Of a stretch of DNA of 64,000 nucleotides, positions 1-14,362 are shown in pieces (the stretch's first letter is position 1; every line of letters starts with the position of its first letter). A program made the position numbers and the translations under genes. Source of the DNA: a virus (Duplodnaviria; Heunggongvirae; Uroviricota; Caudoviricetes); the IMG/VR virus record IMGVR_UViG_2724679237_000005, positions 1-64,000 of that record; one strand, written 5' to 3'. The notes under the pieces are model-generated. The model saw only the letters and a list, made by a program, of their open reading frames with translations, searched no databases and was not told the origin of the DNA.

Positions 1-31
1 AAGCAGGTCTTTAAATAAGCTCCCAGACCGA

Positions 32-298
32 TTACATCACCAGTAACTTCGCTTTGGCTCGACCTAAAGTGGTTAACCCAAGAGTTCGGCGGTGATAGCG
101 ATTGTCACTGCGTTGGCGCGTATGCCCTTTCTCCACCAGCCCCTTTTTTATCAGAGCGCGAATTGAGAACTGGATACTTTGCTTGGTTGTCTTGTACGGC
201 AAAACTTCAAGCAATTCGTCCAGATCAAGTAGATGACCTCGCTCATAACCGAGATTGAGCGTTTTGATGATGTCCTTTTGTTTATCGGTTAACGTCAT
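32..298 (-). CDS. small DNA-binding-like protein (winged-helix suspected), distal gene of the ParB-ABC-GNAT operon
   Basis: 88-aa ORF on the same strand, 9 nt after the GNAT-like ORF. The segment SIQFSIRALIKKGLVEKG looks like a wHTH recognition helix plus wing. No family recognised. Confidence 0.4.
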   Translation of the reverse strand: MTLTDKQKDIIKTLNLGYERGHLLDLDELLEVLPYKTTKQSIQFSIRALIKKGLVEKGHTRQRSDNRYHRRTLGLTTLGRAKAKLLVM

Positions 299-307
299 GG
301 CAAATCC

Positions 308-1198
308 TTATGCCGGTAAAGCAATTTCTAACGGTTTATCCAAAGGTTGTTTGTCGAATGCCAGCAGTGGCAGCGTGTCAGGCAGTCGACGACCAAAGTC
401 AGGGTTTCGGTACACACCATACAACGGAGACGTAAAGCTCAGGTTGTGAATGTCCTTGAGCAGCTTCACAATGCTGGCCTCGTCCACCAGACTGTCGGCA
501 ATGTCTTGAATTGTCGTGCCACGATTCCTCCCAGCTTTTGCCAGGGAACTGTTCTTGTGGTAGTCCGCCACCAGATCTCGCAGTGCACGGCGACGACGGG
601 ACTCGCTCATTGCGAACAACTCTTTGACGATCGCCTCGTTATCACCCGGGTCGGAACGGAAATGGCGCTGGAACACACGCAGTGCACTTTCATAGCTCTT
701 CGGTCGCTCAGGGCGGATGAACTTGAACCCTGCTTTCATGGCGAAGGGATTGTATTTGCTCATCGATGACTGGATCTCAATGATTGGCCGGTCATGCATC
801 CTGCTAACCAGGTTAATCATTCGATAAGAGACGCCTACGCCACGGTACTGGGTATCCACAACTGATCGACTGATCACCGCGAAGTTGTTATTCACGTACC
901 GACCCCAGTACTGGTTAGCCACGGTGGTATTAGTGGTTGGTTTCAACTTAGGAAACATGCGGTGGCGAGGTGCCAGCAGTAGTTTCGGGTAAGCCATAAC
1001 CACGACGCCCACCAGACGGTCATCAAGTTCGCAGCGATAGTAAGTTGGCGCGAAAGGTTTGCCGTCTGTTTTGTAGTGAAGCGACTTAAGAGCGTGCCAG
1101 TCCTCTACAGTTCCCCTTGTGACAGTCATTCGCTCCAGAAAGTCCAGATGACGCGGAAACTCTTCAGGGCGGTAGCGTTTAATGATGATGTCCGTCAT
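308..1198 (-). CDS. GNAT-like acetyltransferase-domain protein
   Basis: 296 aa. Its start overlaps the stop of the ATPase ORF (ATGA at 1195-1198). VVDTQYRGVGVSYRMINLV fits GNAT acetyl-CoA motif A (Q/R-x-x-G-x-G/A). The N-terminal ~90 aa are unassigned. Confidence 0.5.
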   Translation of the reverse strand: MTDIIIKRYRPEEFPRHLDFLERMTVTRGTVEDWHALKSLHYKTDGKPFAPTYYRCELDDRLVGVVVMAYPKLLLAPRHRMFPKLKPTTNTTVANQYWGRYVNNNFAVISRSVVDTQYRGVGVSYRMINLVSRMHDRPIIEIQSSMSKYNPFAMKAGFKFIRPERPKSYESALRVFQRHFRSDPGDNEAIVKELFAMSESRRRRALRDLVADYHKNSSLAKAGRNRGTTIQDIADSLVDEASIVKLLKDIHNLSFTSPLYGVYRNPDFGRRLPDTLPLLAFDKQPLDKPLEIALPA

Positions 1199-1860
1199 AA
1201 ATGAACCTCATCATGACTACCATTGTGATATTCCACCTTCACGCGTTCTTTGTAGTGCTTGGTGATCTGCATATCCGGGCGCAGCGCGTTCTTCAGGTCT
1301 TCGTGAGTCGTCGCCACCATTACCGTCGCACCAACCTTTCGAGCGGCACGCTGGAGGTTAGATGCCACAACCTGAGCGGTTACACGGTCTAGAACAGCAC
1401 CGAACTCGTCAGCAGCCCACACTTTAGCGCCTGACTCAATCAGTTTGGCAATCTTGAGACGATATTTCTGACCGTCTGACATTTCAGAAGGCTTGCGAAC
1501 AAACAGATATGCATCGTTCAGACCAGCCATAGATAACAACCCAAGCGCATCGCTGGTCGTTTTGCCCAACTGATCGATGACGTTAACCTCATTATCGAAG
1601 GTAAAATCATCGATGGAGGCTACAGACAGCCCTTCATCCTTCATCTGTCGTTGCAACTCGCGCAGCACAACGGATTTGCCGGAACCGGATTGGCCGGTGA
1701 TGTACACCACATCGCCCTGCTTCACTTCCAGCACCAGATTGTCGTAAAGCGTCCACTCTTTTTCGTCCAGGCCAAGCCCGAACGACTCAGCGATTTCCAA
1801 CGTGCGCGTGGTTTTATTTACGCGTGTCTGAAACGATACGTTGATGATGTATTTGCTCAT
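1195..1860 (-). CDS. soluble ABC-type ATPase
   Basis: 221 aa with Walker A GQSGSGKS, signature-like SDGQKYR, Walker B VWAADEF and H-loop TTHE. No TM partner. Overlaps both neighbours by 4 nt. Confidence 0.7.
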   Translation of the reverse strand: MSKYIINVSFQTRVNKTTRTLEIAESFGLGLDEKEWTLYDNLVLEVKQGDVVYITGQSGSGKSVVLRELQRQMKDEGLSVASIDDFTFDNEVNVIDQLGKTTSDALGLLSMAGLNDAYLFVRKPSEMSDGQKYRLKIAKLIESGAKVWAADEFGAVLDRVTAQVVASNLQRAARKVGATVMVATTHEDLKNALRPDMQITKHYKERVKVEYHNGSHDEVHL

Positions 1861-2525
1861 GCAGCCATCTCCCCGGAAGAGATCTTCTCCGCATATGCCA
1901 CAAATGCGTCTACCCCGCTTTCTCCCGTCATTTCTTCCATATGGGCAAGCAAATCACCAACAACAATGGCAGAGCCAGCAGGGAGCGTTTTAAAGCCCAA
2001 TACGTCGACAACACGTACTTCTTCCGCTGCAACTTCACGACTGATCTCGGTGTGTTCATCCTTCTGTCGTTTAGTTTCTTCGCCAAGATCGATAACTAGC
2101 GAGTCGGTGTCCATTTCTTCTGTCATACTGCCAACGAGAACATTCAACTCACGCTCTTCAAAGCCGAAAACCTCGATATCGTCCAGAACAAGCGACTCAA
2201 GCTCTTTCTGTAGCTTAATTGCATCGTAATCAATGCTGGCAAGTCGGTTATCTTCAAGGCGCTTCGCACGAACCTCGTCATCACTGAGATCATCGCGAAC
2301 AATAACCGGTACGCGCTCAAGTCCAGCAAAAATTGCAGCCTCACGGCGGCCATGACCAGTAATAATTACGTCGTTCTTATCGACCGTAATTGGCTGGTCA
2401 AATCCGCGCTTTTTAATGGCTGCGGCCAGATCTCTGATCTGCTGTTCATCATGCTTTTTGGCATTCATCTCATAGGGAATAAGATCTGCCGGGTCGCGAT
2501 ATACGATTTCAAACTTTTTGGTCAT
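1857..2525 (-). CDS. ParB/Srx-like nuclease-domain protein 1
   Basis: ATG at 2525 (MTKKFEIVYRDPADL) is preferred over the in-frame ATG at 2558. ParB-type motif ITGHGRREAAIFAGLERVPVIV. Acidic C-terminal half. Confidence 0.7.
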   Translation of the reverse strand: MTKKFEIVYRDPADLIPYEMNAKKHDEQQIRDLAAAIKKRGFDQPITVDKNDVIITGHGRREAAIFAGLERVPVIVRDDLSDDEVRAKRLEDNRLASIDYDAIKLQKELESLVLDDIEVFGFEERELNVLVGSMTEEMDTDSLVIDLGEETKRQKDEHTEISREVAAEEVRVVDVLGFKTLPAGSAIVVGDLLAHMEEMTGESGVDAFVAYAEKISSGEMAA

Positions 2526-3205
2526 TACATACGCTCCTTGTAGTAGTCGACCAGCCACACCAGAGCCTCACCAGCGTTCTCCATTTCATTACCGGTGTTA
2601 ATAGCCTGCTCTTTGATGATGTTTTTTATGGTTTCTGCAACACGATCTGACGCATCGAAGGTTACTTTGAAGCGCATGGTCTGATGTTCCGCACCGACAC
2701 GCTCGGTTTTCTCTCGTTTGTCGGTATCGACAGGCTCATCACTACCACGAGACAACGCCTCCAGTGCTTCAAGGTCGATTGCCGCCTCTTTTGCTAAAAC
2801 CATCGAGATTTCGTCGTCATACGGGGCGATTTCAGACAGTTGATAGTCAAGTTCTGACTGAATTTCTTCAATGAAGCGTTGCAATGCGATTTGGTCGTCT
2901 TCACCGTATCGCTCGTTGTCCACCAGTGACATCTGTTTTGCCACGACATCGCTAATTTTGCCCACAGAAAGCACTGGAACCGTTGAAATTCCTTGCTCAA
3001 TAGCGGCACGCCAGCGATGTTCGCCGCCGAGGATTTCAAAAAATCCATCTTCAAGTTCACGAGCCAAAATTGGCTTAAAAAAGCCCAATTTTTCGATAGA
3101 ACCTTTCAGTTTTTCAAAATTCTGCGCACCAACCGAATTGGTGTTCCAGGTATTCGGGCGAAGGTTGGCAACATCAACCTGCAAAATCGTGATTTTTACA
3201 TCCAT
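2525..3205 (-). CDS. ParB/Srx-like nuclease-domain protein 2
   Basis: ATG at 3205 (MDVKITILQVDV); a GTG at 3223 is also possible. Motif ILGGEHRWRAAIEQGISTVPVLSV. The stop shares nt 2525 with the next ORF's start. Confidence 0.7.
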   Translation of the reverse strand: MDVKITILQVDVANLRPNTWNTNSVGAQNFEKLKGSIEKLGFFKPILARELEDGFFEILGGEHRWRAAIEQGISTVPVLSVGKISDVVAKQMSLVDNERYGEDDQIALQRFIEEIQSELDYQLSEIAPYDDEISMVLAKEAAIDLEALEALSRGSDEPVDTDKREKTERVGAEHQTMRFKVTFDASDRVAETIKNIIKEQAINTGNEMENAGEALVWLVDYYKERM

Positions 3206-3223
3206 TTTATTGCTACAATACAC

Positions 3224-3241
3224 TAAGTAATCACTTACTTA
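3224..3241. promoter_or_regulatory. B-type palindromic operator-like motif
   Basis: taagtaatcacttactta lies in the 82-bp divergent region between the ParB operon and the helicase gene. It belongs to the dispersed ATAGGTAAG-N2-4-CTTACCTAT family. Confidence 0.55.
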
Positions 3242-3287
3242 TTATAATAGCCAAATAACATACAAAAGGCACTAAGGAAAGAGGTTT

Positions 3288-4847
3288 ATGACTGTTCGGA
3301 TTGTATCTAACGCAGTAAATGCGCTTATTTCTGGCGCAGATGACAAGGTAAAGCAACTGGTGCAGCAAATGTTGAGCTACGAAGTCGAGACTGGCGACTG
3401 GAAGGGCACAAGCACGATGTTCAACTGGAGTAAAAACTCGTTCCCTGCTGGCTTTGCCAAGCCTGTAGCGGCGAACTTGAACAAGTCGGGCATCAAATGT
3501 GTTCATATCCGCAAAGACAAAGCCCCGGCGCTTGGAAAGCCAAATCCGGCGGTTAACCCATTCCCATACAATCCTGATTATGCATATCAGGATCAGGCTG
3601 TGGAAACACTAGTTCGCGAGGGAATGATGATTGCCCAGATCGCTACTGGTGGTGGGAAATCTAACGTTGCCTGCAAAGCAGCTGCACGTATCGGTCGAAT
3701 GACATTATTTTTAACAACCCGCTCTGTTCTGATGTTTCAAATGGCCGAAAACTTCCAGAGGTCCATCGACTACCGCGCCGAAAATGGCGAACCGTGGTTA
3801 AAAGACCAAAAGGTTGGAGTCATTGGCTCGGGTGAGTTCCAGGTATCACGACATATCAACGTCGCTACAGTTCAAACTCTTGCAAGTTTCCTCGAAGAAC
3901 CACCACGCGATGCAACACCAGATAAGAAAAGCTACCACCTCAAACGTCGGGAGTTGGTGAAACGCTTCCTTTCAAGTGTCTCTCTTCTTATTCTGGAAGA
4001 GGCGCATGAGTCTTCAGGCTCAAATTTCTATGACATCGCCAGATTATGTGTGAACGCAGACTATCGTCTGGCGCTTACAGCCACGCCGTTCATGAAGGAT
4101 TCGACGGAAGCCAACATGCGCCTGATGGCGGTGGCCGGGCGAATTGAAATTAAAGTCACAGAAAAGTACCTGATTGATCGAGGCATTCTGGCAAAGCCGT
4201 ACTTCCTTTATCATAAAGTTGCCTACAAGCCAGACGAGGCCAGAATCAAGGCCGAACTTGCCAACAAACACCTCAATTTTAGAGTTGGTATGAGCACCGC
4301 CTACCAAAAGGCTTATCAGTTGGGGATCGTGTATAATTTGGGACGTAACGAGGCCATAGTGCGCGAGGCATTGCTTTATAAGCAACATTCACTCAACTGC
4401 ATGACTCTGGTTCGTCTTAAACGCCACGGGCAAATCCTGATGGAGATGATGAAGGAGTCAGGTCTTAGAGTTGATTTCATCTATGGGGAATCTAACCAGA
4501 CGACAAGGCAAGCAAAGCTGAACAGTTTAGCGTCTGGCGAAATAGATGTTTTAATAGGCTCGACTATTCTGGATGTCGGTGTTGATGTGCCAAGTGTGGG
4601 CGCGGTCATTCTTGCTGGTGGTGGGAAAGCAGAAGTTGAAATGAGACAGCGTGTCGGTCGTGGCTTACGAGCCAAGAAGAATCAGGCAAACGTGTGTTTT
4701 ATCACTGATTTCATTGACATTAGCAACAAATACCTGTTGTCTCACTCTTATGAGCGAAAACACATCATCGACACCACACCTGGCTTTGCAGAAGGTGTAT
4801 TGCCTATTGATGGAGCATTCGATTTTGGAGTTCTGAAACGAGATTAG
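3288..4847 (+). CDS. superfamily-2 DEAD/DEAH-like helicase
   Basis: 519 aa. Motif I ATGGGKS, motif II LILEEAHE, motif III LTATP, motif VI RQRVGRGLR. SD aggaaagagg lies upstream of the ATG. Confidence 0.8.
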   Translation: MTVRIVSNAVNALISGADDKVKQLVQQMLSYEVETGDWKGTSTMFNWSKNSFPAGFAKPVAANLNKSGIKCVHIRKDKAPALGKPNPAVNPFPYNPDYAYQDQAVETLVREGMMIAQIATGGGKSNVACKAAARIGRMTLFLTTRSVLMFQMAENFQRSIDYRAENGEPWLKDQKVGVIGSGEFQVSRHINVATVQTLASFLEEPPRDATPDKKSYHLKRRELVKRFLSSVSLLILEEAHESSGSNFYDIARLCVNADYRLALTATPFMKDSTEANMRLMAVAGRIEIKVTEKYLIDRGILAKPYFLYHKVAYKPDEARIKAELANKHLNFRVGMSTAYQKAYQLGIVYNLGRNEAIVREALLYKQHSLNCMTLVRLKRHGQILMEMMKESGLRVDFIYGESNQTTRQAKLNSLASGEIDVLIGSTILDVGVDVPSVGAVILAGGGKAEVEMRQRVGRGLRAKKNQANVCFITDFIDISNKYLLSHSYERKHIIDTTPGFAEGVLPIDGAFDFGVLKRD

Positions 4848-4849
4848 TT

Positions 4850-5128
4850 ATGAGCGAAAAGAAAACAACTTATTGCCAAGTGGCATTGTCTGATAAGGCC
4901 AATGAAAAACTTGGAAAATTTCAAATAAAACTCAAAGAGAAAAAAATCAAGATGTCTAAGGCTGAAGTTATCAATGCCATTCTGGAGACGATGACTATGG
5001 CTGAATTTGACAAAGTCACATCTGCCGTTGGGGTTTCCGCTAAGACGCGTGAGAAAATCATGCGCATCTATGAGAACTCCAATATGACAAAAAAAGATCT
5101 AGAGGAAATACTGAGCAGGTTGCCGTAA
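4850..5128 (+). CDS. hypothetical Lys-rich protein (possible ribbon-helix-helix)
   Basis: 92-aa ORF starting 2 nt after the helicase stop. The TYCQVALSDKANEKL pattern is a weak RHH-like hint only. Confidence 0.4.
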   Translation: MSEKKTTYCQVALSDKANEKLGKFQIKLKEKKIKMSKAEVINAILETMTMAEFDKVTSAVGVSAKTREKIMRIYENSNMTKKDLEEILSRLP

Positions 5129-5193
5129 CATTTCATATTTACCCCCTATCTACTAATTCTATGATGTGCTCACTTGTTAGAAAGGAGCACATC

Positions 5194-5760
5194 ATGAGTT
5201 GGTTAAAAGAATTATCATTTGTTGACACCACTGGCGCTAAGAAAAATCATTCTTTCTGGAAAGTCAGCGATCCTTCTGATTTTCTTGTTGGTGCTAATGC
5301 TGCTTTTGAATTGCTTAACTTTTATCAACGTTATCCTGAAATGAAACACAGTCCACTCCTGTACAGAATAACAAACGATATGAATAGGTCTGGTTTATTA
5401 TCAAGTGAGTCAGCGAAAGGCTTTTTTAGCAAAATTACGCCACACATATCATTCGATTCAGCAAACGAAATTGATTATCTACCCACGAAACCTCAAGAAC
5501 AATTATCTGTACCACCTGAGAAAAAAGAAAGACGAATTGCCAGCATTGAAAATATATCGAAAGAGCTTCGCACAACAACGTTGAGGCTGCTGAACTTTCT
5601 TACGCTACTTAATTGGATAGATGATCAAACATTGATTCCATCAACCGATGCGTTGGATAACAGAGTCCTTAGGCTGAACAAAAAATCGCAATTTGGTTTT
5701 GTGTTCACCAAAAAAGGTGAAGATTTAATCAAAAGAAAATATAGATTATTGAATGATTAA
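5194..5760 (+). CDS. hypothetical protein (AT-rich island)
   Basis: ATG at 5194 follows SD aaggag. The upstream in-frame ATGs at 5161/5164 lie inside an 11-bp hairpin arm. No recognisable motifs. Confidence 0.5.
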   Translation: MSWLKELSFVDTTGAKKNHSFWKVSDPSDFLVGANAAFELLNFYQRYPEMKHSPLLYRITNDMNRSGLLSSESAKGFFSKITPHISFDSANEIDYLPTKPQEQLSVPPEKKERRIASIENISKELRTTTLRLLNFLTLLNWIDDQTLIPSTDALDNRVLRLNKKSQFGFVFTKKGEDLIKRKYRLLND

Positions 5761-5766
5761 TAGTCT

Positions 5767-5796
5767 ACATGCAGGTGTATGAGAGCACCTGCATGT
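5767..5796 (+). terminator. hairpin after the 5194-5760 ORF
   Basis: acatgcaggtg / cacctgcatgt is an 11-bp perfect stem with an 8-nt loop. The T-run is displaced by ~14 nt, so intrinsic-terminator function is uncertain. Confidence 0.45.
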
Positions 5797-5905
5797 GACA
5801 TTCATCACATTTTTTGAAGTACACACCTCCGGCTGAAAAAATTTCTTGATTGGCTGAACGATATTTGTAGGCTTTTCAATTGATAACTAATGTCGGATAC
5901 TGTAG

Positions 5906-6394
5906 ATGAGTATTTCTATAAACAAAATAATTAACTCTTTACGACATAAAATATCACATGGAAAAGATGCTCTTTTTAAAGACAAATATTATCTATTCAA
6001 CTTAGAGCCGTACAAATGTACAAAATTTTATATCACTCGGAACCGTAAATATTCAGTTTCAATCACAAAAGACATGAAGAAAATCTCTTCAGAAGAGTAC
6101 TTCATATCACATATTTATATCTACCCATTTAAATTAGAACCATTAAATATAATTCTTCCAACAATAAAAGGGGTTGAACTTGAAGGTTATACTTTAAGCT
6201 CTAACTTTAATGATATGGGTGTACAAAAACCAGGGACAAGGTCATACTACGCCTACAAAGTAAAATGCAATAACTACAACGCACTTAACATGCTAATCAG
6301 CAAACTTGAAACGGAGATAGTCGAAGGAAATCTAAATGATGATCATGAAAAATTAGAACAAATAGAAAAACTTAGAAAGTGTGATGTTAAATAA
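5906..6394 (+). CDS. hypothetical protein (AT-rich island)
   Basis: 162-aa ORF, very AT-rich and Lys/Asn/Ile-rich. No motif recognised. Confidence 0.5.
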   Translation: MSISINKIINSLRHKISHGKDALFKDKYYLFNLEPYKCTKFYITRNRKYSVSITKDMKKISSEEYFISHIYIYPFKLEPLNIILPTIKGVELEGYTLSSNFNDMGVQKPGTRSYYAYKVKCNNYNALNMLISKLETEIVEGNLNDDHEKLEQIEKLRKCDVK

Positions 6395-6409
6395 TTGGAT
6401 TATCATGAT

Positions 6410-7009
6410 ATGAAAATGAAACTTTCGTTACTCCTTGCTTGTATATGCCTCCCGGCGTTTTCCGCCAACGCATTATCAGATTTCGTCTCTGACATGCAAA
6501 AAACGTACAGCATGTTTACCTCCGAAGACGTAGTAGAATACAAATCACGAGGTCTGAATCAGCCAGTTTGGTTCAGATTCTCAGACAACGCAGAAGAAAC
6601 AATACTTAATGGAGGAAAAGAAAGATTACGGTTGCAAATTAACGGGACCGCTGTACCAGAAAACGTTAATGTAAGCTCTGACGAAGCCATGAAGCCATCT
6701 GGAATTGTTTTAGAAGTTCAAGACGGCACACTTTACTGTGATGAAATGGCTACAACAGGTTGCCAAGTAAACATTAGGGTTGGCAATGAAGAGCCTATCG
6801 TTACTTACGCCAAGGCTGAAGGGAATACAAGTGGAAAGGTATTGTTTATCGATGAAAATATCTCAAAACGTATCGTTCGTGACATACAGAAAACAGCTAA
6901 CTCTAAATCCGTCGATAAAAAAATCTATGTTGAGGTTCCCTTCTTTGTCGTTGGTAACAAAGAATTTAAATTTGGGTTGCTGAAAACACCTCTAAGAGTA
7001 TCAGAATGA
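6410..7009 (+). CDS. exported protein (signal peptide; possible lipoprotein)
   Basis: ATG at 6410 gives MKMKLSLLLACICLPAFSANA. This reads as a signal peptide with either an LLAC lipobox or an ANA cleavage site. The stop overlaps the next ORF (ATGA). Confidence 0.6.
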   Translation: MKMKLSLLLACICLPAFSANALSDFVSDMQKTYSMFTSEDVVEYKSRGLNQPVWFRFSDNAEETILNGGKERLRLQINGTAVPENVNVSSDEAMKPSGIVLEVQDGTLYCDEMATTGCQVNIRVGNEEPIVTYAKAEGNTSGKVLFIDENISKRIVRDIQKTANSKSVDKKIYVEVPFFVVGNKEFKFGLLKTPLRVSE

Positions 7010-7530
7010 GAACATTGGACATCACCTACGGCATACCGGCTGAAGTCTGGCCGCGAGACTACGAACATGCTGAAAACATACTTATGTTCTGGCGGAAGAA
7101 CAACATTCCTGTAAGAGTCACGCTTGAAGACGGTCAGGTGTTTTGCATGTACGTTCAGGGGACAATGCCTTCCCGCAATAAGCTAGATTTATGCCCGCTT
7201 CCATATGATAAAGAAAATCGTATAAGACTCCCACTTGAGCGCATTAGCACAATTGAATCAGGTGTAATCGATGGCATTGCTCGCGAGTTCAAAGGTAGGC
7301 TAACAATACATCCAGACTATGTTGACAATCAGCCATCACGCCGTGACTTTTTTGCGATATGTCGCAAGGCTTATCAAAACGACCAATCTATAAGGGTCTA
7401 CATGGCAGACGGTCGTGAAATTGAAGGGGTGTCAAGAGGCGTTGATGCTTGCCAGGTCACTCTTAAGTTAGAAGACGGCAGAAAAATACTTGTTTTCTTC
7501 GATTGGGTCGAACGAATCCTTCCATTTTAA
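7006..7530 (+). CDS. protein with two Rof (Rho-binding antiterminator)-like repeats
   Basis: 174 aa. Two segments (DYEHAENILMFWRKNNIPVRVTLEDGQVF...IRLPLERISTIES and DFFAICRKAYQNDQSIRVYMADGREIEG...ILVFFDWVERI) resemble E. coli Rof as I remember it (DYDNLELAC..LTLELKDGEKLQ...LRLDKITSF). Confidence 0.45.
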   Translation: MRTLDITYGIPAEVWPRDYEHAENILMFWRKNNIPVRVTLEDGQVFCMYVQGTMPSRNKLDLCPLPYDKENRIRLPLERISTIESGVIDGIAREFKGRLTIHPDYVDNQPSRRDFFAICRKAYQNDQSIRVYMADGREIEGVSRGVDACQVTLKLEDGRKILVFFDWVERILPF

Positions 7531-7542
7531 ATCTATAAGGGT

Positions 7543-7572
7543 AATAACCGGCTAAGCCCGGTTATTATTTTA
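7543..7572 (+). terminator. rho-independent terminator
   Basis: aataaccgg-ctaagc-ccggttatt is a 9-bp stem followed by attttac. Confidence 0.8.
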
Positions 7573-7722
7573 CATGCCATTCATTTAAAACTCTTTCAAC
7601 GCCACTCTGTATAAATATATAAGGTTAAAGGCCCGAATTGATTATTTATTTAGGGAACACCTTCGACGATCTCGCTTTTATTTCTAGGACTTTCACCCCT
7701 GCAAGAAATTTAAAAAAAATAC

Positions 7723-7750
7723 TTGCAATCTTTTTTCACGTATCGATAAT
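7723..7750 (+). promoter_or_regulatory. sigma70-type promoter of the 7826-8978 operon
   Basis: TTGCAA, 16 nt, GATAAT, preceded by an A8 tract (UP-like). Confidence 0.6.
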
Positions 7751-7825
7751 TGAACTCGTCGAAAGCGAGCTAGCTAACGACAGTAAAAAATAAATTCATT
7801 TTAATTTTTCGTAAGGATGTCCATC

Positions 7826-8476
7826 ATGGCTAACATTATCATTTCTAAAAAGTCCATCATTGAAGCTGCATCTATTGTATCCGACGAGCTGCGCGAAAAA
7901 GCAGATCTGGCAACTCAAACATATAACGAACATTATAAAAATGGTACGCACACTAAAGCAGACAAAGCAAATATGCAAGCTGCGACCACTAAACTTGCTT
8001 ACTTCATCAACAACGTTGTAAACGCTGTAGAAGACGAAAAATTATGCTCTGTTTTCTACTATGCGATTAAAGCAAGCAAACAAGCGCCAGAAGTATTTTT
8101 CCGTGATGCAATGACTAATAGTTATTCTCTGGAAAAACTGGTTTATCTGGTTAAATCAATTAAATCTGGTAAATGCGTTTATTCCATCGCTGATATGTCA
8201 GGATCTCGTGTATTCGCTTTAATCGATATGATTAACGACGAGATCGACACGTTCACCAATGGCGCTGTTTTCGATTTAATGAATGAAGCTAAAAAAGCGT
8301 GCGAAATTAAATTGGACGCTGGCTATACTCAAGCTAACCAGCTAATCAATCTTTGCGAACGTCTCGGACTTGTTGAGAAAGTCAAAGGAATGGGAAGCGC
8401 CAAAGCTGGTACACAGCAATATCGCTTTATCAAGAATGATTTCTACAATTATCTAGCTGACGCTTTCAAAGCGTAA
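7826..8476 (+). CDS. hypothetical protein
   Basis: ATG at 7826 lies 9 nt after SD aagga. 216 aa, helical-looking, no motif recognised. Confidence 0.55.
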   Translation: MANIIISKKSIIEAASIVSDELREKADLATQTYNEHYKNGTHTKADKANMQAATTKLAYFINNVVNAVEDEKLCSVFYYAIKASKQAPEVFFRDAMTNSYSLEKLVYLVKSIKSGKCVYSIADMSGSRVFALIDMINDEIDTFTNGAVFDLMNEAKKACEIKLDAGYTQANQLINLCERLGLVEKVKGMGSAKAGTQQYRFIKNDFYNYLADAFKA

Positions 8477-8524
8477 TTAATGGAATTAAGCGCCCATAGT
8501 GGGCGCTTTAAAGGAGCTTTAAAG

Positions 8525-8728
8525 ATGGTCAGCTATGACAAGATCCGCGCGGAATATCGCGCAAAGTATCGCGCTTATAAACTGGAATTAATCGATGATT
8601 TGATCGCGCAACGCGACCAATTAAATTTTACGTTTTCTGATTTGCTTAACAGCAAGCGAGATTGCAAGCGTAAACGTGAATACTTACGTTTAAGCACATT
8701 AATCGGAAAACTTCAAAATTCTATTTAA
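8525..8728 (+). CDS. hypothetical small protein
   Basis: ATG at 8525 follows SD aaaggagc. The upstream part of the tracked ORF crosses a hairpin at 8489-8507. 67 aa. Confidence 0.5.
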   Translation: MVSYDKIRAEYRAKYRAYKLELIDDLIAQRDQLNFTFSDLLNSKRDCKRKREYLRLSTLIGKLQNSI

Positions 8729-8747
8729 TTTTTTAAGGAGCTTAATC

Positions 8748-8978
8748 ATGTTTGTTCTTATCGCTGGCGTTAACGTCCATAATGAATATTATGTTAATCG
8801 CATCGCTGGGATCGCTGGTTACGCTGGGCGCACAGTCGAGCTTATAGATGAAACGACGCGCAAAATTGACTTATTGAGCGACCAGGAGCGAAAAAAAGCA
8901 GACGTGAACGACGCTGATATATTTTTAATGTTAAAAGCGTTTGTAGAAATGGGATTTAAAATCAGTTTACACAAATAA
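8748..8978 (+). CDS. hypothetical small protein
   Basis: 76 aa. SD taaggagc lies 7 nt upstream. Confidence 0.5.
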   Translation: MFVLIAGVNVHNEYYVNRIAGIAGYAGRTVELIDETTRKIDLLSDQERKKADVNDADIFLMLKAFVEMGFKISLHK

Positions 8979-8983
8979 AATCG

Positions 8984-9008
8984 AGCGCCCACTATGGGCG
9001 CTTTTTTC
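8984..9008 (+). terminator. rho-independent terminator
   Basis: agcgccca-cta-tgggcgct followed by tttttt. It is the mirror copy of the hairpin at 8489-8507. Confidence 0.85.
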
Positions 9009-9028
9009 GTTTCCAATACTCCCACCAT

Positions 9029-9056
9029 AACGCGCCATCATTAGCGCGTTTTTTAT
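9029..9056 (+). terminator. second tandem terminator
   Basis: aacgcgc-catcatta-gcgcgtt followed by tttttt. Confidence 0.7.
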
Positions 9057-9468
9057 TGTCTTTAACTCACTCCAACAACATAAAAATAAGCGCCAAAATA
9101 ACGCCATAGACGCGCTTTTATATTATTGCCAGTACATACCCATTACTTAACACATTAACGCGCTTAAAACGCGTTATATTGCGCTATAGCGCATAGTTAA
9201 TCATTGGCTTTTAGTCTTGCTATGTGATCCGCGTTTAATTGTCGGCGCGGATCGGCATTTTGTTTTGTTCCGTATCCGCTCGCGTATTATGTGCGCGTGA
9301 TTTTTCACATAATCACACCACTTAATCACGTATATGATTACGCTACGAAAGAAATCTGGATGTCTCAGGCGACGAAAGTCAGCATAATTTTCCCCGCTCA
9401 CCTGTCCGACAACCGCTGGTTGGATTCCACCAGCTTCCCGATGTTTTTTCTACATAAAGGCGAATGCA

Positions 9469-9545
9469 GCCGTTTCCCGAAAAAATCCTGGCCGTTTCCC
9501 GTCGGCTCATGAATACGTTCCTCGCCGTCTCTGAAAATTTCCCTG
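9469..9545. repeat. 22-bp-periodic GCCGTTTCCC-type repeat array (minor copy)
   Basis: gccgtttcccg occurs at 9469 and 9491 (both perfect). Degenerate copies sit near 9513 (acgttcctcg) and 9535 (aatttccctg). All are in the same orientation as the array at 12600-12733. Confidence 0.5.
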
Positions 9546-9560
9546 CGGCAGCTGGTGGCT

Positions 9561-9586
9561 ATAGAGAAAGGGCCGTTTCTGGCCCT
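9561..9586 (-). terminator. rho-independent terminator of the 9595-10077 cassette
   Basis: On the minus strand, AGGGCC-agaaac-GGCCCT is followed by TTCTCTAT. Confidence 0.7.
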
Positions 9587-9594
9587 CTTCTCAG

Positions 9595-10077
9595 TTACAC
9601 GCCATCAAGGATGTGGATGCGGTTGCTTGCGTATACATTCAGCATAAAGTTAGCGCAAAACAGTTTCCATGTATCAACGCCAGCGGTATACGTAATGTTT
9701 TTGCATTTAATCGCATTGTTGGCGATCCGCATCCCCTGCGATACTGCTTCATCGTCGGAAAATTTGAACGACGATTGAGTTTTAATCCAGACAGAAATCT
9801 GCGTAGCGAACTCAATCAGCTTGGACTGGCAGAATCGCCCGGAGTGCACCGGAAAGACGAACGTTCCGAATCCAGAATTTACCACATACGCTTTCTCAAA
9901 TACCCGCGAGTAACGACGATTGCCAATGATGTCGCGTGCAATAATGCATTTTTCTTGTGCTGACAGTTCTACCGTCTCATTGTCGCGCCATGCACCAAGT
10001 ACTCGTTTTTCAATGTCAGAGAACGTTACAGCGATATTGCCATGTGCGGGTGCGTTTACAGTAGCGATAAAATTCAT
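9595..10077 (-). CDS. hypothetical protein
   Basis: 160-aa ORF with SD aaggaa and an A-type motif upstream. No motif recognised. Confidence 0.6.
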   Translation of the reverse strand: MNFIATVNAPAHGNIAVTFSDIEKRVLGAWRDNETVELSAQEKCIIARDIIGNRRYSRVFEKAYVVNSGFGTFVFPVHSGRFCQSKLIEFATQISVWIKTQSSFKFSDDEAVSQGMRIANNAIKCKNITYTAGVDTWKLFCANFMLNVYASNRIHILDGV

Positions 10078-10094
10078 GATTAATTCCTTATCGT

Positions 10095-10130
10095 AAATAA
10101 CAAATTGTTTTCTTGTTGGTGTTAATTATC
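10095..10130 (-). promoter_or_regulatory. A-type promoter/leader motif
   Basis: The plus strand reads aaataacaaattgttttcttgttggtgttaattatc. Palindromic core AACAAATTGTT. The minus strand carries a GATAAT -10-like hexamer. Confidence 0.55.
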
Positions 10131-10252
10131 GTTGTACGAATAAGGCGTCAAAGTGGAAAGTTGCGGTAGCCGGACGGGAACAGGTGGGTTTGTCGGTTGC
10201 CTGGAGGTAAGAGGTTGGTGTTTTTAGCCTGCGGGAAACAGGATGGTCATTT

Positions 10253-10276
10253 AAGGCCACCAATGCTGATGGCCTT
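10253..10276 (-). terminator. hairpin after the 10282-10425 ORF
   Basis: aaggcca-ccaatgctga-tggcctt. The U-tract is weak. Confidence 0.4.
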
Positions 10277-10281
10277 AATAA

Positions 10282-10425
10282 TTATCGACCGATTACGCTA
10301 AGGATCTTTTCCTCAACTGATTTGTTGTTGCGACTAAACTGCCTTGCGTATCTGATGACAGAAGAGGCGTTTTGCTTTCTGACCATCTCGGCTCTTTCCT
10401 TCAGGCGTTTCTTGAAATCGCCCAT
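10282..10425 (-). CDS. hypothetical 47-aa basic protein
   Basis: MGDFKKRLKERAEMVRKQNASSVIRYARQFSRNNKSVEEKILSVIGR. The start lies 2 nt after the upstream ORF's stop. It falls below the ORF-track cutoff. Confidence 0.35.
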   Translation of the reverse strand: MGDFKKRLKERAEMVRKQNASSVIRYARQFSRNNKSVEEKILSVIGR

Positions 10426-10427
10426 AT

Positions 10428-10802
10428 TTACCACCAGGCGCAGAAGGTCAGTCTGTTATTGTGAAAGTCGTGGTTCCTGATCAGGTCTTCCACAAGTTTT
10501 TTCAGCTTATCCACGTCATGCCAGTAACCTTCGTCGTACTCCTGACTGCCGAAGAAAAAACCTTCCCGAGTAGGCAAGTACTCTTCGCAATTGCTTTCGT
10601 TTATGTGCATCAAATGAGCTTTCAGAAGGCAAATGTCATTCATCGTTAATTCTAAAAGCTCACAATTTTCGACTTCACCTACGTTGCGCTCCATCCACCC
10701 AACGAGCGCATTGAACTTACGGAAGTAAGCAACCTGCTTTCTGGATGCCTCGTTATTCAGATCGTTTTTAGGCTGTGTCTCGATATAGATATCAAGTCCC
10801 AT
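10428..10802 (-). CDS. hypothetical protein
   Basis: ATG at 10802 (MGLDIYIETQ) follows the strong SD aaggaa. 124 aa. Confidence 0.6.
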   Translation of the reverse strand: MGLDIYIETQPKNDLNNEASRKQVAYFRKFNALVGWMERNVGEVENCELLELTMNDICLLKAHLMHINESNCEEYLPTREGFFFGSQEYDEGYWHDVDKLKKLVEDLIRNHDFHNNRLTFCAWW

Positions 10803-10857
10803 GATGGTTTCCTTATTAAGTTGCTTCAGTGAAATCATTTTCACAAATCAGATAAGG

Positions 10858-10888
10858 CAGAAAACAAATTGTTATCGGGCATAATAAA
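10858..10888 (-). promoter_or_regulatory. A-type promoter/leader motif
   Basis: cagaaaacaaattgttatcgggcataataaa. TATTAT on the minus strand. Confidence 0.5.
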
Positions 10889-10911
10889 ATGGCGCGGTTT
10901 GCGCGCCATTT
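10887..10911 (-). terminator. rho-independent terminator of the 10920-11315 cassette
   Basis: aaatggcgcg-gtttg-cgcgccattt is a 10-bp stem. Confidence 0.75.
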
Positions 10912-10919
10912 AAAGAGGA

Positions 10920-11315
10920 TTAAGCGAATACGCTTTCAGGGATTAAGGTGTCGGCAGGAATGCCAGAGGTAATGCGCAGACCGTACTGGCCAATCCAGGT
11001 GGTGCTGGTGTTCAGGCTGGAGGCGAATACGGTGTTAACCATATTCATCATGGTTTCAAACACCTCTTCATCAACCTGGCGGAAGTAGTTCTCGATTTTC
11101 AGCAGCAGCGGGTCAGTTGCATCGAGAATGGACTGGTATTGAGTCGCGTACTCGCCGCCGGAGGCATCACCTTTACGCACGATCGTACTGGCCTGGACTT
11201 CGGCACCAGTTTCGGTGTTGTACGTAACAACGGTGATTTTTGCCACATTCTTACCTTCGGCAGTTTCAGAGGCATAGTAAACATCAACTGTCAGTTTTTC
11301 GCGTTTAACGGTCAT
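10920..11315 (-). CDS. hypothetical protein
   Basis: ATG at 11315 (MTVKREKLTV) follows SD ggagag. 131 aa. Confidence 0.6.
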   Translation of the reverse strand: MTVKREKLTVDVYYASETAEGKNVAKITVVTYNTETGAEVQASTIVRKGDASGGEYATQYQSILDATDPLLLKIENYFRQVDEEVFETMMNMVNTVFASSLNTSTTWIGQYGLRITSGIPADTLIPESVFA

Positions 11316-11358
11316 TTCACTCTCCGTAGCGTATTGGTTATTTTTATATTCTATGATC

Positions 11359-11374
11359 GTAAGTATGTACTTAC
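11359..11374. promoter_or_regulatory. B-type operator inside a sigma70-like promoter
   Basis: gtaagtatgtacttac. The minus strand reads TTGTAA-17 nt-TAGAAT with the palindrome filling the spacer. Confidence 0.55.
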
Positions 11375-11383
11375 AATACAAAA

Positions 11384-11406
11384 AGCCCCGTAAGGATGGC
11401 GGGGCT
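11384..11406 (-). terminator. rho-independent terminator of the 11441-11752 cassette
   Basis: agccccg-taaggatgg-cggggct with TTTTGTATTG following on the minus strand. Confidence 0.75.
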
Positions 11407-11440
11407 GTCGTACTGTCGACTAATTACCACTTGCACATTA

Positions 11441-11752
11441 TCAGGCTATTGCCATCACTGATGCTCTCTGAATTTCTTGCTGGGCCACGCGGTTAACTTC
11501 CATCAAAGCCAGTTCGAGCTGATGTTCCGGCCACATTCTTTGAAATGCCACCCAGCCTTTTCCACGCTGGCGACGAACATTCATTACATAACGAGTAAAG
11601 GTGTTTTTATCGAAAGACACCGCTGTTTCACGGAACAGACGAATAGAGGTTCCATTGGCAACGATGTCCAGCAAAGTTAATTGAGCAACCAGTGCAGGCT
11701 TCTCTTTTCTCTTCTGGTCTTTGTCCAGACCAAGAACCAATGATTTTTTCAT
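11441..11752 (-). CDS. hypothetical protein
   Basis: ATG at 11752 (MKKSLVLGLD) follows SD ggag. 103 aa. Confidence 0.55.
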   Translation of the reverse strand: MKKSLVLGLDKDQKRKEKPALVAQLTLLDIVANGTSIRLFRETAVSFDKNTFTRYVMNVRRQRGKGWVAFQRMWPEHQLELALMEVNRVAQQEIQRASVMAIA

Positions 11753-11763
11753 CACAACTCCGT

Positions 11764-11797
11764 AAACAACTTGTTTTCTCAATGGCGTAAATAATAC
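11764..11797 (-). promoter_or_regulatory. A-type promoter/leader motif
   Basis: aaacaacttgttttctcaatggcgtaaataatacc. TATTAT on the minus strand. Confidence 0.5.
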
Positions 11798-11878
11798 CAG
11801 TAAGAAAACGGCTACAAAGCATATTGATCAGGTGCATAAGCGATACGCAGGTTCTTCCCTGCGGCTACAGATTAAGTT

Positions 11879-11898
11879 AAGCCAGCATTGCTGGCTTT
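11879..11898 (-). terminator. terminator of the 11906-12235 cassette
   Basis: aagccagc-att-gctggctt hairpin. Confidence 0.6.
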
Positions 11899-11905
11899 GA
11901 TTGGT

Positions 11906-12235
11906 TTACGCGAATACCTCAAGAAACTCCTGAACGTCCCAATGCTGGACAAGGTGAAGATAGACCTTAGAAATCACGTCATTCTCGCTATCGCATGTGA
12001 AGTAGTACTTCTGGCTGCGGTTGTATGTGTCCACACAAAATTCGCTCATATCCATAAAGTCAGCATCATCACCCAGGTCGCTAATCATCAAAGCAGGTGC
12101 ATCATCACGAGTCATCAGCTCCAGCACCCATCTTGAATTAATCAGAGTGGAAGACCAACCTTCCAGCTCATAAAACTGGTCAAACTCTTTTTGAGTCAAT
12201 TTCTTAATTTGGTTGATGTCGATATGTGCAAACAT
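11906..12235 (-). CDS. hypothetical acidic protein
   Basis: ATG at 12235 (MFAHIDINQ) follows SD aagga. 109 aa, Asp/Glu-rich (DLGDDADFMDMSEF). Confidence 0.55.
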   Translation of the reverse strand: MFAHIDINQIKKLTQKEFDQFYELEGWSSTLINSRWVLELMTRDDAPALMISDLGDDADFMDMSEFCVDTYNRSQKYYFTCDSENDVISKVYLHLVQHWDVQEFLEVFA

Positions 12236-12247
12236 AAAGCAATCCTT

Positions 12248-12280
12248 AAACAAGATGTTTTCTTAATGGTGTTATTATCG
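12248..12280 (-). promoter_or_regulatory. A-type promoter/leader motif
   Basis: aaacaagatgttttcttaatggtgttattatcg. GATAAT on the minus strand. Confidence 0.5.
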
Positions 12281-12599
12281 CAATAACGCACAGGCGAAAA
12301 AAGGATTTTATTCCGGTGAATGTGGTTTTGGCAGTGAGTTTTCAGGTTCAGTACAGAGTACACTTTTTACATTATTCTGATTTAGTGGCCGAAGATGGCT
12401 GGTGGGCAGAATAATCATCTCCCCGAAAACCTACTGAAATCGATTGTGACCCGTTGGCTGTCTGGCACAATTACGCTGTAACTGGGCATTCAGAGGGAAT
12501 CCAGCGGTAAGTAGGTTCGCCTTCACGTGAGCGCCTCTCTTCTTCCCGAACATTGCAGGTGGCCAGCCGCAACTCTCCCTCTCGCTATACCGGTACGCC

Positions 12600-12733
12600 G
12601 CCGTTCCTGAACCGGCATCGAGCCTTTTCCCGAAATCCACACAGGCAACTCGACCGTTTCCCTGAAAATCCCCAGCCGTTCCCCGAAGGCAACCCAGCCG
12701 TTTCTGTAGCGGGATGCAGCCTTTTCCCTGTAT
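12600..12733. repeat. iteron-like direct-repeat array, six copies of GCCGTTTCCC(t)GAA
   Basis: Copies start at 12600, 12622, 12653, 12675, 12698 and 12720, giving spacings of 22, 31, 22, 23 and 22 bp. All are in one orientation. The ORF-track ORFs crossing the array have no SD or start context. Confidence 0.65.
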
Positions 12734-12790
12734 GGACCGAAGGCTGACCGTAGGAGTGTTACGGGGGATAAAATCAGGAGTTGAATAAAT

Positions 12791-12817
12791 ACGAAAAAGG
12801 AGGCGACACCCCTCCTT
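12791..12817 (-). terminator. rho-independent terminator ending the C/A-rich transcript
   Basis: On the minus strand, aaGGAGG-ggtgtcg-CCTCCtt is followed by TTTTCGT. Confidence 0.65.
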
Positions 12818-13650
12818 CCCTCCCCACTTATACATACCTTGCTTCTTCGCTATACATGTTGTGTTTTCTTCGTGTTTTATCTGTCTCAACCTCTCTATAG
12901 GCGTTAATGCTTACTCCTTCCAGAAACTTCTATACGGCGACTATTTCTGTTGGTGAATTGGGTGTGTTGTTTTCTCTGTCGGTGTATGTGGTTTCGTTCG
13001 TTTTGCGGTGGTTCTTCTATGGGGTGTTCTCGTCGTTTTGGTGATTGTTCTTCTCCGTGTATGGAGTAATGGCAGGTGGGCGATTCCTTTCGTTATTGTG
13101 TTTGAGTTGTTTGTCTGGAGTGCGTGAAGGGCTTTTGTAGTTATTCGTGTATTGGGTAATGGCGTTTCCCGTGATTGTTATGTTTCGTGTCTTTTGGGAT
13201 TGAGAGAAACCTTGCGGTTACAGGCTTCGTTGGGGTTTCAGCGGTTCAGGTGTTTCTTCGCTGTTTGGGTAATGGCGTGTCGTGGGTATCGCGCGTATGA
13301 ATGTTTTCGGATTGCCTGTGAAAGTTAGGTTGGTTGTCCGGTAGCCTGGGGAGAAGAGGTGGGTCTTTTCGGTAGCCTGCCATAAAGAGGTTGGTTGTTT
13401 TGGGTAATGGCATATGTGTTATTTAGTTGTTTTGTTATGCCTGAAAATAAGTTGTTTATATGGTTGTGTAACGCAACGGGAGCGATTTTGAGCGTGTGTT
13501 TTTGTTGGTAGTGTGTTGAGTCGTCTGTAGTGAAAATTGGACGCTGTGGAGCTGTCTGCTGCGTAGGATTACGAGTATAAGAAGTGATGTGTGAAAACGT
13601 CAATTTTTTAGACCAAATCGGGTGAAGGCGTTGACGTTTCGTTGATCTGT
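12818..13650 (-). ncRNA. candidate ~0.85-kb non-coding transcript, C/A-rich and G/U-poor
   Basis: It is bounded by an A-type motif (13651-13683) and the terminator at 12791-12817. The only ORF (13325-13603) has a TTG start and a low-complexity Q/T/P/N product. The plus strand is strikingly G+T-rich. Confidence 0.3.
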
Positions 13651-13683
13651 TATTCAGTTGTTTTCTTATTGGTATAAATAACT
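13651..13683 (-). promoter_or_regulatory. A-type promoter/leader motif (half-palindrome) with no downstream ORF
   Basis: tattcagttgttttcttattggtataaataact. It keeps the CCAATAAGAAAAC leader, but the left half of the core is degenerate. Confidence 0.4.
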
Positions 13684-13795
13684 ATAACCTATTGATATTT
13701 AAGGATGTGATTGCGGGTATGGAGGGAGGGTAGTGGCGATCAACGGATTCTTATAGAAAAGAATCAAATTGTGACCGCCATTATCAACGGTTTGG

Positions 13796-13981
13796 TTAGA
13801 TGAGATGGTCTAATTCATCATCTATCATGGCTTTGACGCTGGAGTCATTCACTCCATATTTATTTATGAGCTGTTTCAGCTCTGGCGAAAACTGAAGGTA
13901 GATATCGTGAGCGTTTTTCACTGTAGGTTCAACGCCACGCATTTCAAGCGCCTTTAGTAGATATGAGTCTTCTTTAAGCAT
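13796..13981 (-). CDS. hypothetical small protein
   Basis: 61-aa ORF downstream of the 14018-14317 ORF. Confidence 0.45.
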   Translation of the reverse strand: MLKEDSYLLKALEMRGVEPTVKNAHDIYLQFSPELKQLINKYGVNDSSVKAMIDDELDHLI

Positions 13982-14017
13982 AAATTCTCCGTTATCTAGT
14001 ATGAAGCGATTGCCGGA

Positions 14018-14317
14018 TTACCATTGCCAGCACTCAAGCCCTTCAACGACCGGTGCGCCACAATCAAAATGTACAGAGTCAAAGCCTACATCAAGTACTT
14101 TCTGAATGTTCGCAATCGCGCCCTCGGATATACCATATCGACGCAACTCATCTTTCCAGTCATCGTCCTGTAACCCGGCGTGGACAATGCAACCGTACTC
14201 AATTTGTGAAACCCAATCCAGCTCATTGCTTGCGATCATGAATCGGCGAGCATCTTCCTCTGATGTATGAGATGAGCTGATCAATGCCACCTGGTAGGCT
14301 TGGGTAATGTTCAACAT
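14018..14317 (-). CDS. hypothetical protein
   Basis: ATG at 14317 (MLNITQAYQ) lies 8 nt after GGAG. 99 aa. Confidence 0.55.
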   Translation of the reverse strand: MLNITQAYQVALISSSHTSEEDARRFMIASNELDWVSQIEYGCIVHAGLQDDDWKDELRRYGISEGAIANIQKVLDVGFDSVHFDCGAPVVEGLECWQW

Positions 14318-14329
14318 TTCAACCACTCC

Positions 14330-14362
14330 AAAACAAGTTGTTTTCTTATGTGGTTTATTATC
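14330..14362 (-). promoter_or_regulatory. A-type promoter/leader motif
   Basis: aaaacaagttgttttcttatgtggtttattatc has a perfect 7-1-7 palindrome. GATAAT on the minus strand. Confidence 0.55.

Follow-up and report, generated by a model that had tools for sequence, protein, structure and literature searches.

We analysed positions 5161 to 7530 of a 64,000-nucleotide stretch of viral DNA (IMG/VR record IMGVR_UViG_2724679237_000005, positions 1 to 64,000; henceforth referred to as the window). The best explanation of this region, and one that we consider probable, is that it consists of a variable cargo slot (5161-7005) followed by a backbone gene (7006-7530) for an FljA-family protein of 174 amino acids (aa) with tandem Sm/Hfq-like units, which is a probable post-transcriptional repressor. 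Several circular, non-mobilizable plasmids of ~110 kb from Escherichia coli and E. fergusonii match the 2.4-kb region with 100% identity, parts of it are 96-98% identical to Escherichia phages CMS-2020a and Cyrano, and its last gene (7006-7530) is 78% identical to DNA of Salmonella phage SSU5. The matching plasmid has a terminase, two ParB-like genes and a DEAD-box helicase beside the region. These identities and neighbours therefore establish the window as an SSU5-type phage-plasmid, and bear out the initial annotation, made from the sequence alone, which had taken it for a phage-plasmid. The region contains four consecutive open reading frames (ORFs) arranged head to tail on the + strand, at 5161-5760 (199 aa), 5906-6394 (162 aa), 6395-7009 (204 aa) and 7006-7530 (174 aa); the ATGA overlap that the initial annotation had described for the last two can be read directly at 7006-7009.

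FljA family membership and predicted fold

As judged from its sequence, the 174-aa protein encoded by the fljA-like gene (7006-7530, + strand, with an ATG that overlaps the upstream stop codon) is a full-length, diverged member of the FljA family (PF03614). It matches PF03614 (Flag1_repress, 'repressor of phase-1 flagellin') with 270.9 bits against a cut-off of 24 (E 5.4e-81) over profile positions 1-170 of 170, the two halves of the protein each matching their own half of the profile (1-88 and 90-170), and it also falls into PHROG 1444 'transcriptional repressor'. The canonical FljA that served as reference (L011:3992-4528), whose gene on a Salmonella plasmid is annotated fljA and follows hin and a FliC/FljB flagellin gene, aligns with it end to end over residues 1-171 with 34% identity and 53% positives (E 2e-34). 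With the FljA proteins of Salmonella, E. coli and the S. Typhi linear plasmid pBSSB1 it has in common PF03614 over the full length (174 aa, compared to 179 aa in FljA) and the motifs ITYG..E.WPRDY at the N-terminus, PSRRD[FY]F.IC, and FDWV.RI at the C-terminus. The family is already recognised by Pfam, PHROGs and GenBank annotations, and the GenBank/RefSeq labels for the gene are 'putative repressor of phase 1 flagellin', 'transcriptional repressor' and 'transcriptional regulator'.

Salmonella FljA is described as binding fliC mRNA and blocking its translation (PMC4122451, PMC2652032) and plasmid-borne FljA(z66) as acting post-transcriptionally (PMC2652032), and the case of FljA z66 on pBSSB1 indicates that FljA genes function from plasmids and across species (PMC1876496, PMC2652032). 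By analogy, the phage-plasmid copy would presumably be alike as a post-transcriptional repressor. Unlike fljA, however, the 174-aa gene is linked to neither a second flagellin gene nor a Hin/Pin invertase gene and stands in the SSU5-like backbone, where its neighbours are the helicase, small ORFs and an exported protein; tblastn found no flagellin or Hin-like invertase in the 64-kb window (best E 0.82 and 0.29, respectively). A flagellin partner under an invertible promoter is absent; that arrangement is the mark of the phase-variation system and not of the protein family. The phage-plasmid copies differ further from FljA in being highly diverged and in occurring also in hosts without flagella.

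The AlphaFold2 (AF2) model of the 174-aa protein, computed from a 29-sequence alignment, has a predicted local distance difference test score (pLDDT) of 82 and contains two copies of a helix followed by five strands (helix 20-31 with strands 36-85, and helix 112-124 with strands 128-173); the protein is thereby predicted to be an Sm fold twice in tandem, with Sm/Hfq-like domains at ~17-86 and 108-174. The modelled units have the topology of the Sm fold, including an N-terminal helix alpha-1 of the Rof type, and nearly all of the top 50 Foldseek matches are Hfq. Profile comparison of the N-terminal with the C-terminal half gave P values of 1.2e-4 to 3.2e-4 over 62-68 columns, and residues 123-165 produced sub-threshold Pfam matches to Hfq (18.8 bits, cut-off 27) and LSM (14.5-15.9 bits, cut-off 23.4). 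A fold search of the viral BFVD database returned weak single-domain matches only, phmmer and profile searches of all PDB sequences with the 174-aa protein returned nothing relevant, and neither a paper nor a solved structure on the FljA fold turned up in the literature searched. Compared to Hfq (PF17209, PF01423), which is a single unit that forms a homohexamer, the 174-aa protein would carry two Sm units per chain, and it scores below the Pfam thresholds of the Hfq/Sm profiles. We take the F-D-W-V of the 174-aa protein to stand where Hfq has its Sm2 signature YKHAI. The initial annotation had described two Rof-like repeats in this protein: the tandem of two Sm-like units is upheld by the AF2 model and the profile P values, whereas membership of the Rof family is not.

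Comparison with Rof

The initial annotation had proposed a duplicated Rof-type inhibitor of Rho as a new variant, and the gene belongs instead to the PF03614 FljA family. No PF07073 match was found for the whole protein (E<=1) or for either half (E<=10), in a search of the halves in which E. coli Rof as positive control scored 99.8 bits, and tblastn with Rof over the window left the 174-aa gene untouched. A profile search of 1.84 billion proteins yielded 28 family representatives, and every sequence read was FljA-like and none Rof-like. Structure comparison, which together with PF07073 had been named as a way to check the proposal, did find an Sm-like fold, with Hfq closer than Rof. The hhalign comparison of the N-terminal half with Rof was weak (P 7e-4, and 3e-3 over 73 columns) and that of the C-terminal half not significant, the Rof profile being shallow and the alignments correspondingly weak, since the homologue search gave only close enterobacterial Rofs (>=85% identity). 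An 18-residue local BLASTP match to E. coli Rof (E 0.007 in a single comparison) was rejected, its register being inconsistent with the structure. Overall, Rof is one of several Sm-like neighbours of the protein and not the closest. Rof/YaeO (PF07073; PDB 1SG5, 6JIE; Rho-Rof cryo-electron microscopy, PMC11018626, PMC11018607) is a single domain of ~84 aa, as opposed to the 174-aa tandem here, and the two have no profile-level sequence relationship.

The residues through which Rof contacts Rho are N9, C10, D11, Y13, D14 and E17 in helix alpha-1 and R46, K47, N48 and E50 in the beta3-beta4 loop; a salt bridge joins D11 to Rho, Rho binding is lost with either Y13A or D14A, and E17K abolishes toxicity (PMC11018626, PMC11018607), as does D14A (PMC11018626). 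In the weak register of the N-domain alignment, Y13, E17, K47 and N48 have equivalents in Y19, E23, R57 and N58, residues with little or no variation in the close clade, and this is a point in favour of a Rof-like activity. Against it, D11 is replaced by R17, an invariant charge reversal, D14 falls on a variable position (E here; S, T or K in relatives), and the equivalents of the Rof contacts are conserved neither in deeper family members nor in canonical FljA. Because the D11 and D14 equivalents are lost and wider conservation is lacking, a Rof-like grip on Rho appears unlikely.

We therefore regard as highly improbable the explanation that a duplicated Rof-like protein blocks Rho at its primary RNA-binding site, perhaps in connection with an untranslated region at 12.8-13.65 kb that is C-rich on the - strand. 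As the explanation would have it, few ORFs are present at 12.9-13.7 kb, and the - strand there is rich in C and poor in G. However, no Rof was found among the PDB profile matches, and Rof overproduction is toxic (PMC11018626), which, depending on the expression level, would be ill-suited to a stably maintained plasmid prophage. Nothing was found, moreover, that links the 174-aa gene to the G/T-rich region, which the initial annotation had described as a rut-like locus; the motif AAGGGTRAT recurs nowhere else in the window, and no link was found from the terminator region of the fljA-like gene to the 13-kb repeats. The likeness to P4 Psu and other phage antagonists of Rho is conceptual only, in that a mobile-element gene possibly modulates host RNA metabolism: Psu is a capsid-decoration protein of unrelated fold that clamps Rho rings (PMC11718236), and the 174-aa protein has no sequence or structural similarity to it.

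As separate observations on this part of the window, positions 12900-13750 are strongly G+T-rich on the + strand (C+A-rich on the - strand) and unannotated in RefSeq relatives, and contain five copies of GGGTAATGGC (13064-13737) together with other degenerate direct repeats.

Synteny, distribution and selection

We assessed synteny by tblastn of nine window proteins on 12 related loci. The order is constant, namely helicase, 92-aa ORF, the variable slot, fljA-like gene and 219-aa ORF, and was seen in SSU5, Cyrano, a Y. pestis pMT1-like plasmid, Kluyvera, Buttiauxella and four Klebsiella lineages. The search picked up the helicase and the fljA-like gene in every one of the 12 relatives, and the 92-aa ORF and the 219-aa ORF in 11 apiece. 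The deepest branches (24-44% identity) display identical synteny where the contig is long enough, on contigs of 111 kb that also carry portal, terminase and ParB genes. The 174-aa gene is a fixed backbone gene of SSU5-type phage-plasmids and not cargo.

A relative of the 174-aa gene is carried by 835 plasmid records, of which 797 are non-mobilizable and most measure 100-115 kb. Klebsiella accounts for 345 of the 835 and Yersinia for 62 (Y. pestis in the rows listed), with Salmonella, Enterobacter, Citrobacter and Cronobacter among the other carriers. A scan of genome contigs found 6 loci only, its patterns being exact, and did not reach chromosomal fljA. Klebsiella pneumoniae and Y. pestis make no flagella, and the gene is full-length in the Klebsiella and Yersinia records. 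Pairwise ratios of nonsynonymous to synonymous substitution rates (dN/dS) ranged from 0.07 to 0.36, with values of ~0.1-0.26 where substitutions sufficed and 0.26 for a Klebsiella-Klebsiella pair, all of them approximate given that dS was saturated for many pairs. The fljA-like gene is under purifying selection, including in hosts without flagella.

Three further observations concern individual relatives. The FljA-like protein outpaces its neighbours in divergence, with 27% identity in the metagenome contig L018 (positions 1-2055), where the helicase reaches 69% and the 219-aa protein 57%, and likewise in L012 and L021; such fast evolution suggests either adaptation to a changing partner or relaxed constraint. 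One 48% identical copy (P0074) lies on a 5.2-Mb E. coli chromosome contig and has many radical changes at otherwise invariant positions, and could be the decaying remnant of an integrated or degraded element. Finally, the records labelled 'Bacillota bacterium MAG' (L009), 'Candidatus Fimivivens MAG' (L010) and 'Gemella morbillorum' (P0076) contain typical enterobacterial SSU5-like phage-plasmid sequence (helicase 82-92% identical) and are probably mis-binned or contaminant records.

Proposed mechanism and candidate targets

FljA homology, the Hfq-like tandem fold and the absence of a DNA-binding domain together make a sequence-specific, RNA-binding translational repressor the best supported role, and by analogy with FljA we infer that the 174-aa protein binds RNA and represses translation. 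In the mechanism that we propose, the fljA-like gene would be translationally coupled in this lineage to the upstream exported-protein gene and have its own terminator after it; the 174-aa protein would bind a specific mRNA leader region, leader binding would block ribosome loading, and the blocked message would become exposed to decay.

One candidate for the target is fliC. In this explanation the phage-plasmid brings about lysogenic conversion, in that its FljA homologue binds the leader of the host fliC mRNA and stops flagellin synthesis, so that the carrier is less flagellated; if true, this could mean protection from flagellotropic phages, less stimulation of TLR5, or energy saving. Repression of fliC is the only function characterised for PF03614 proteins (PMC4122451, PMC2652032), and, as described above, FljA works from plasmids and across species (PMC1876496, PMC2652032). 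In addition, the hosts E. coli and E. fergusonii and many other carriers are flagellated, and some copies are labelled 'repressor of phase-1 flagellin' in databases. However, since the 64-kb window contains no flagellin or invertase gene, repression would mean loss of flagella and not phase switching; the 345 Klebsiella and 62 Yersinia records among the 835 carriers hold the gene full-length and under purifying selection; its fixed place in the backbone of every lineage, beside the ParB and helicase genes, is what one expects of a gene that serves the element; and the identity to canonical FljA is just 34%. We consider conversion through fliC less likely than not overall, although repression of host fliC in E. 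coli and Salmonella is a realistic prospect. The intact gene in Klebsiella and Y. pestis, which lack flagella, and the window without flagellin or invertase therefore make it doubtful that fliC is the sole or primary target. A serious candidate for the primary target, though short of an even chance, is an RNA encoded by the phage-plasmid or a host RNA unrelated to flagella; we consider this somewhat more likely than fliC in that role.

Several points weigh against a post-transcriptional repressor directed at such RNA. Literature searches found no study of any phage-plasmid FljA homologue, and at ~34% identity to the characterised FljA, RNA specificity is not transferable. No operator was found, and comparison of the E. 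coli fliC leader with the window gave chance-level matches (best 12 nt, E 0.3); the conserved non-coding blocks beside the gene show no RNA covariation. Sm-like domains may also bind protein, as in Rof, or single-stranded DNA or ligand, as in WYL proteins, so that the fold is no guarantee of RNA binding, and the inter-domain arrangement in the AF2 model is uncertain (predicted template modelling score 0.52). Finally, phage-plasmids move between hosts, and the presence of the gene in Klebsiella and Y. pestis is not strict proof of selection there.

The variable slot and its accessory genes

The segment 5161-7005 is a variable cargo slot, which here holds three AT-rich accessory genes, the last of them encoding a predicted Sec-exported protein. 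Its left anchor is the 92-aa ORF (phrog_1466; 4850-5128, + strand), a conserved backbone gene that directly follows the helicase in the 11 relatives in which it was detected (36-100% identity) and that was undetected in the most divergent, L012. Elsewhere the slot is empty or contains other genes, often for lipoproteins or exported proteins, such as SSU5_122 'lipoprotein' in SSU5 and a reverse-strand 'membrane lipoprotein' in Cyrano, and at least 80% of the four-gene stretch was found in only 22 plasmid records.

The initial annotation had described the whole of 5161-7530 as an AT-rich island of moron genes on the opposite strand. The low GC content of the stretch is real (0.377 compared to 0.457 for the window as a whole, which places it among the lowest 4.3% of segments of 2370 bp), but the 174-aa gene is not AT-rich: the values for single genes are 0.36 (ORF199), 0.29 (ORF162), 0.40 (ORF204) and 0.45 (174-aa gene), the last being at backbone level. 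The low-GC zone, driven by ORF162, ORF199 and ORF204, is also broader than the stretch, extending from ~4.6 to 9.2 kb. As to strand, most large ORFs of the window lie on the - strand, and the four genes do oppose this prevailing direction; their orientation, however, is that of an entire conserved 5.7-kb + strand block (3288-8978) and not of an inserted island. Because this block opens with the conserved DEAD-box helicase gene and runs to 8978, the strand switch is not a property of an island. The description as morons holds for 5161-7005, which is phage-plasmid cargo of accessory and exported type, and fails for the 174-aa gene, which is backbone and occupies the same position in all 12 relatives. 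Elsewhere in the window, the most AT-rich 2.4 kb (GC 0.355) lies within ~21250-23900 rather than at 5161-7530.

The first accessory gene, ORF199 (phrog_13473; 5161-5760, + strand, GC 0.36; the RefSeq start at 5194 gives 188 aa), occurs sporadically, with 98% identity in Cyrano and 43% in L009, while SSU5, Y. pestis and two Klebsiella loci, L012 and L013, lack it (L016 and L017 being outside the test). Just past its stop codon, at 5767-5796 (+ strand), lies a perfect 11-bp inverted repeat (ACATGCAGGTG / CACCTGCATGT) with an 8-nt loop and a T-run 15 nt beyond; homology to Cyrano ends at ~5875, near this repeat, which may act as a weak terminator or mark the edge of a cassette. The second, ORF162 (phrog_25050; 5906-6394, + strand), is with a GC content of 0.29 the most AT-rich gene of the stretch and has no homologue among the fetched relatives apart from the identical plasmid L001. 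Both ORF199 and ORF162 match solely PHROGs of unknown function, and a PADLOC search with six ORFs gave no defence-system match. RefSeq annotates the last 106 codons only of ORF162 (6074-6394), while PHROG 25050 matches all 162 residues; residues 6-28 give a sub-threshold Pfam match to YmgB/AriR (E 0.005).

The third accessory gene (phrog_18942, an orphan family; 6395-7009, + strand) encodes a protein with a predicted Sec signal peptide. Its product has 204 aa when read from the first TTG, and 199 or 197 aa from the ATG at 6410 or 6416, one of which is the likely start. The signal peptide that the initial annotation had recognised in this ORF is confirmed as typical Sec type, with the N-terminus M(KM)KLSLLLACICLPAFSANA running into LSD at the cleavage site. 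The possible lipobox proposed alongside it does not hold up: homologues have Thr or Ile in place of the 'LLAC' Cys, which is itself no more than 9-11 residues into the protein. In the alignment of homologues the site A-x-A/[LI]SD (here A-N-A/LSD, the slash marking cleavage) and two Cys of the mature part are invariant. Lipoprotein identity was accordingly rejected for this product, and the replaced Cys, taken together with the invariant cleavage site and the two invariant mature Cys, points to a substrate of signal peptidase I that would be periplasmic or secreted and disulfide-bonded. The family comprises 15 clusters, and its full-length members with long contigs are on phage-plasmid-sized ones (~100-113 kb). 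The protein has no Pfam, NCBIfam, PADLOC or PDB match, and its AF2 model (pLDDT 47.8) is too poor for a structure search.

Downstream terminator, non-coding blocks and promoter

A hairpin resembling an intrinsic terminator lies at 7538-7573 (+ strand), with perfect 10-bp arms, the core TAATAACCGG / CCGGTTATTA and a T-run following; a simple terminator scan missed it on account of the interrupted T-tail. Its consensus stem of 14 pairs is kept in 10 of 10 relatives and is reshaped yet still pairing in the Klebsiella locus L012, and the hairpin, by its sequence features, would close the fljA-like transcription unit. Between this terminator and the next promoter, three non-coding blocks at 7614-7693 (AATATATAAGG; ATTTATTTAGGSAACACCTTC; TTTnTTTCTAnGAnTTT) show no change across 10 relatives, even in a Klebsiella element with flanking proteins of only 36-50% identity. 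The consensus fold of the conserved intergenic region contains the terminator hairpin only, with no covariation elsewhere, and Rfam gave no match in positions 1-16000 of the window; the blocks are therefore probably a regulatory, protein-binding element at the DNA level. A sigma-70-like promoter for the 219-aa ORF follows at 7723-7750 (+ strand; TTGCAA-16-GATAAT), of which CTTG in the -35 region and TCGATAAT in the -10 region are invariant among 10 relatives. The 219-aa ORF itself (7817-8476, + strand) is the right anchor of the locus.

This arrangement bears on an alternative role for the 174-aa protein, that of a DNA- or ligand-sensing regulator with WYL-like Sm domains that controls the adjacent non-coding blocks and the promoter of the 219-aa gene. 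The invariant non-coding element and the conserved promoter immediately downstream would fit such a role, as would the RefSeq name 'transcriptional regulator'. That name is generic, however, and the protein has no helix-turn-helix or other DNA-binding domain, its two Sm-like units using up all 174 aa, whereas WYL proteins require a separate DNA-binding domain; the characterised homologue FljA, moreover, acts on mRNA (PMC4122451). We regard this alternative as very unlikely and retain the translational repressor as the preferred role.

Family evolution and implications

In a neighbour-joining tree of the FljA family, three deepest clades split from the rest in 200 of 200 bootstraps, and two of the three are confirmed as phage-plasmid-borne. 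Canonical FljA forms a single branch among the phage-plasmid clades, the bootstrap figure for whether it nests inside them being an indecisive 100 of 200, and the phage-plasmid copies account for the greater part of the family's diversity in sequence. This much greater diversity hints that the phase-variation repressor may have been recruited from a phage-plasmid element. On a tentative reading, which we consider less likely than not, the FljA family as a whole would be a tandem-Sm, Hfq-like RNA regulator in the core of SSU5-type phage-plasmids that acts on RNA of the element or on non-flagellar host RNA, with flagellar FljA as a domesticated offshoot.

Overall, the FljA family is predicted to be a tandem Sm/Hfq-like family, consistent with its known mRNA binding. 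Since the gene is universal in the SSU5-like backbone, also where the host is Klebsiella or Y. pestis and lacks flagella, calling the phage-plasmid copies 'flagellin repressor' is probably misleading. If the tentative reading is true, it would provide a first fold and a broader role for the textbook regulator FljA, and would reveal a layer of post-transcriptional control in clinically widespread plasmid prophages, including relatives of Y. pestis pMT1 and S. Typhi pHCM2.

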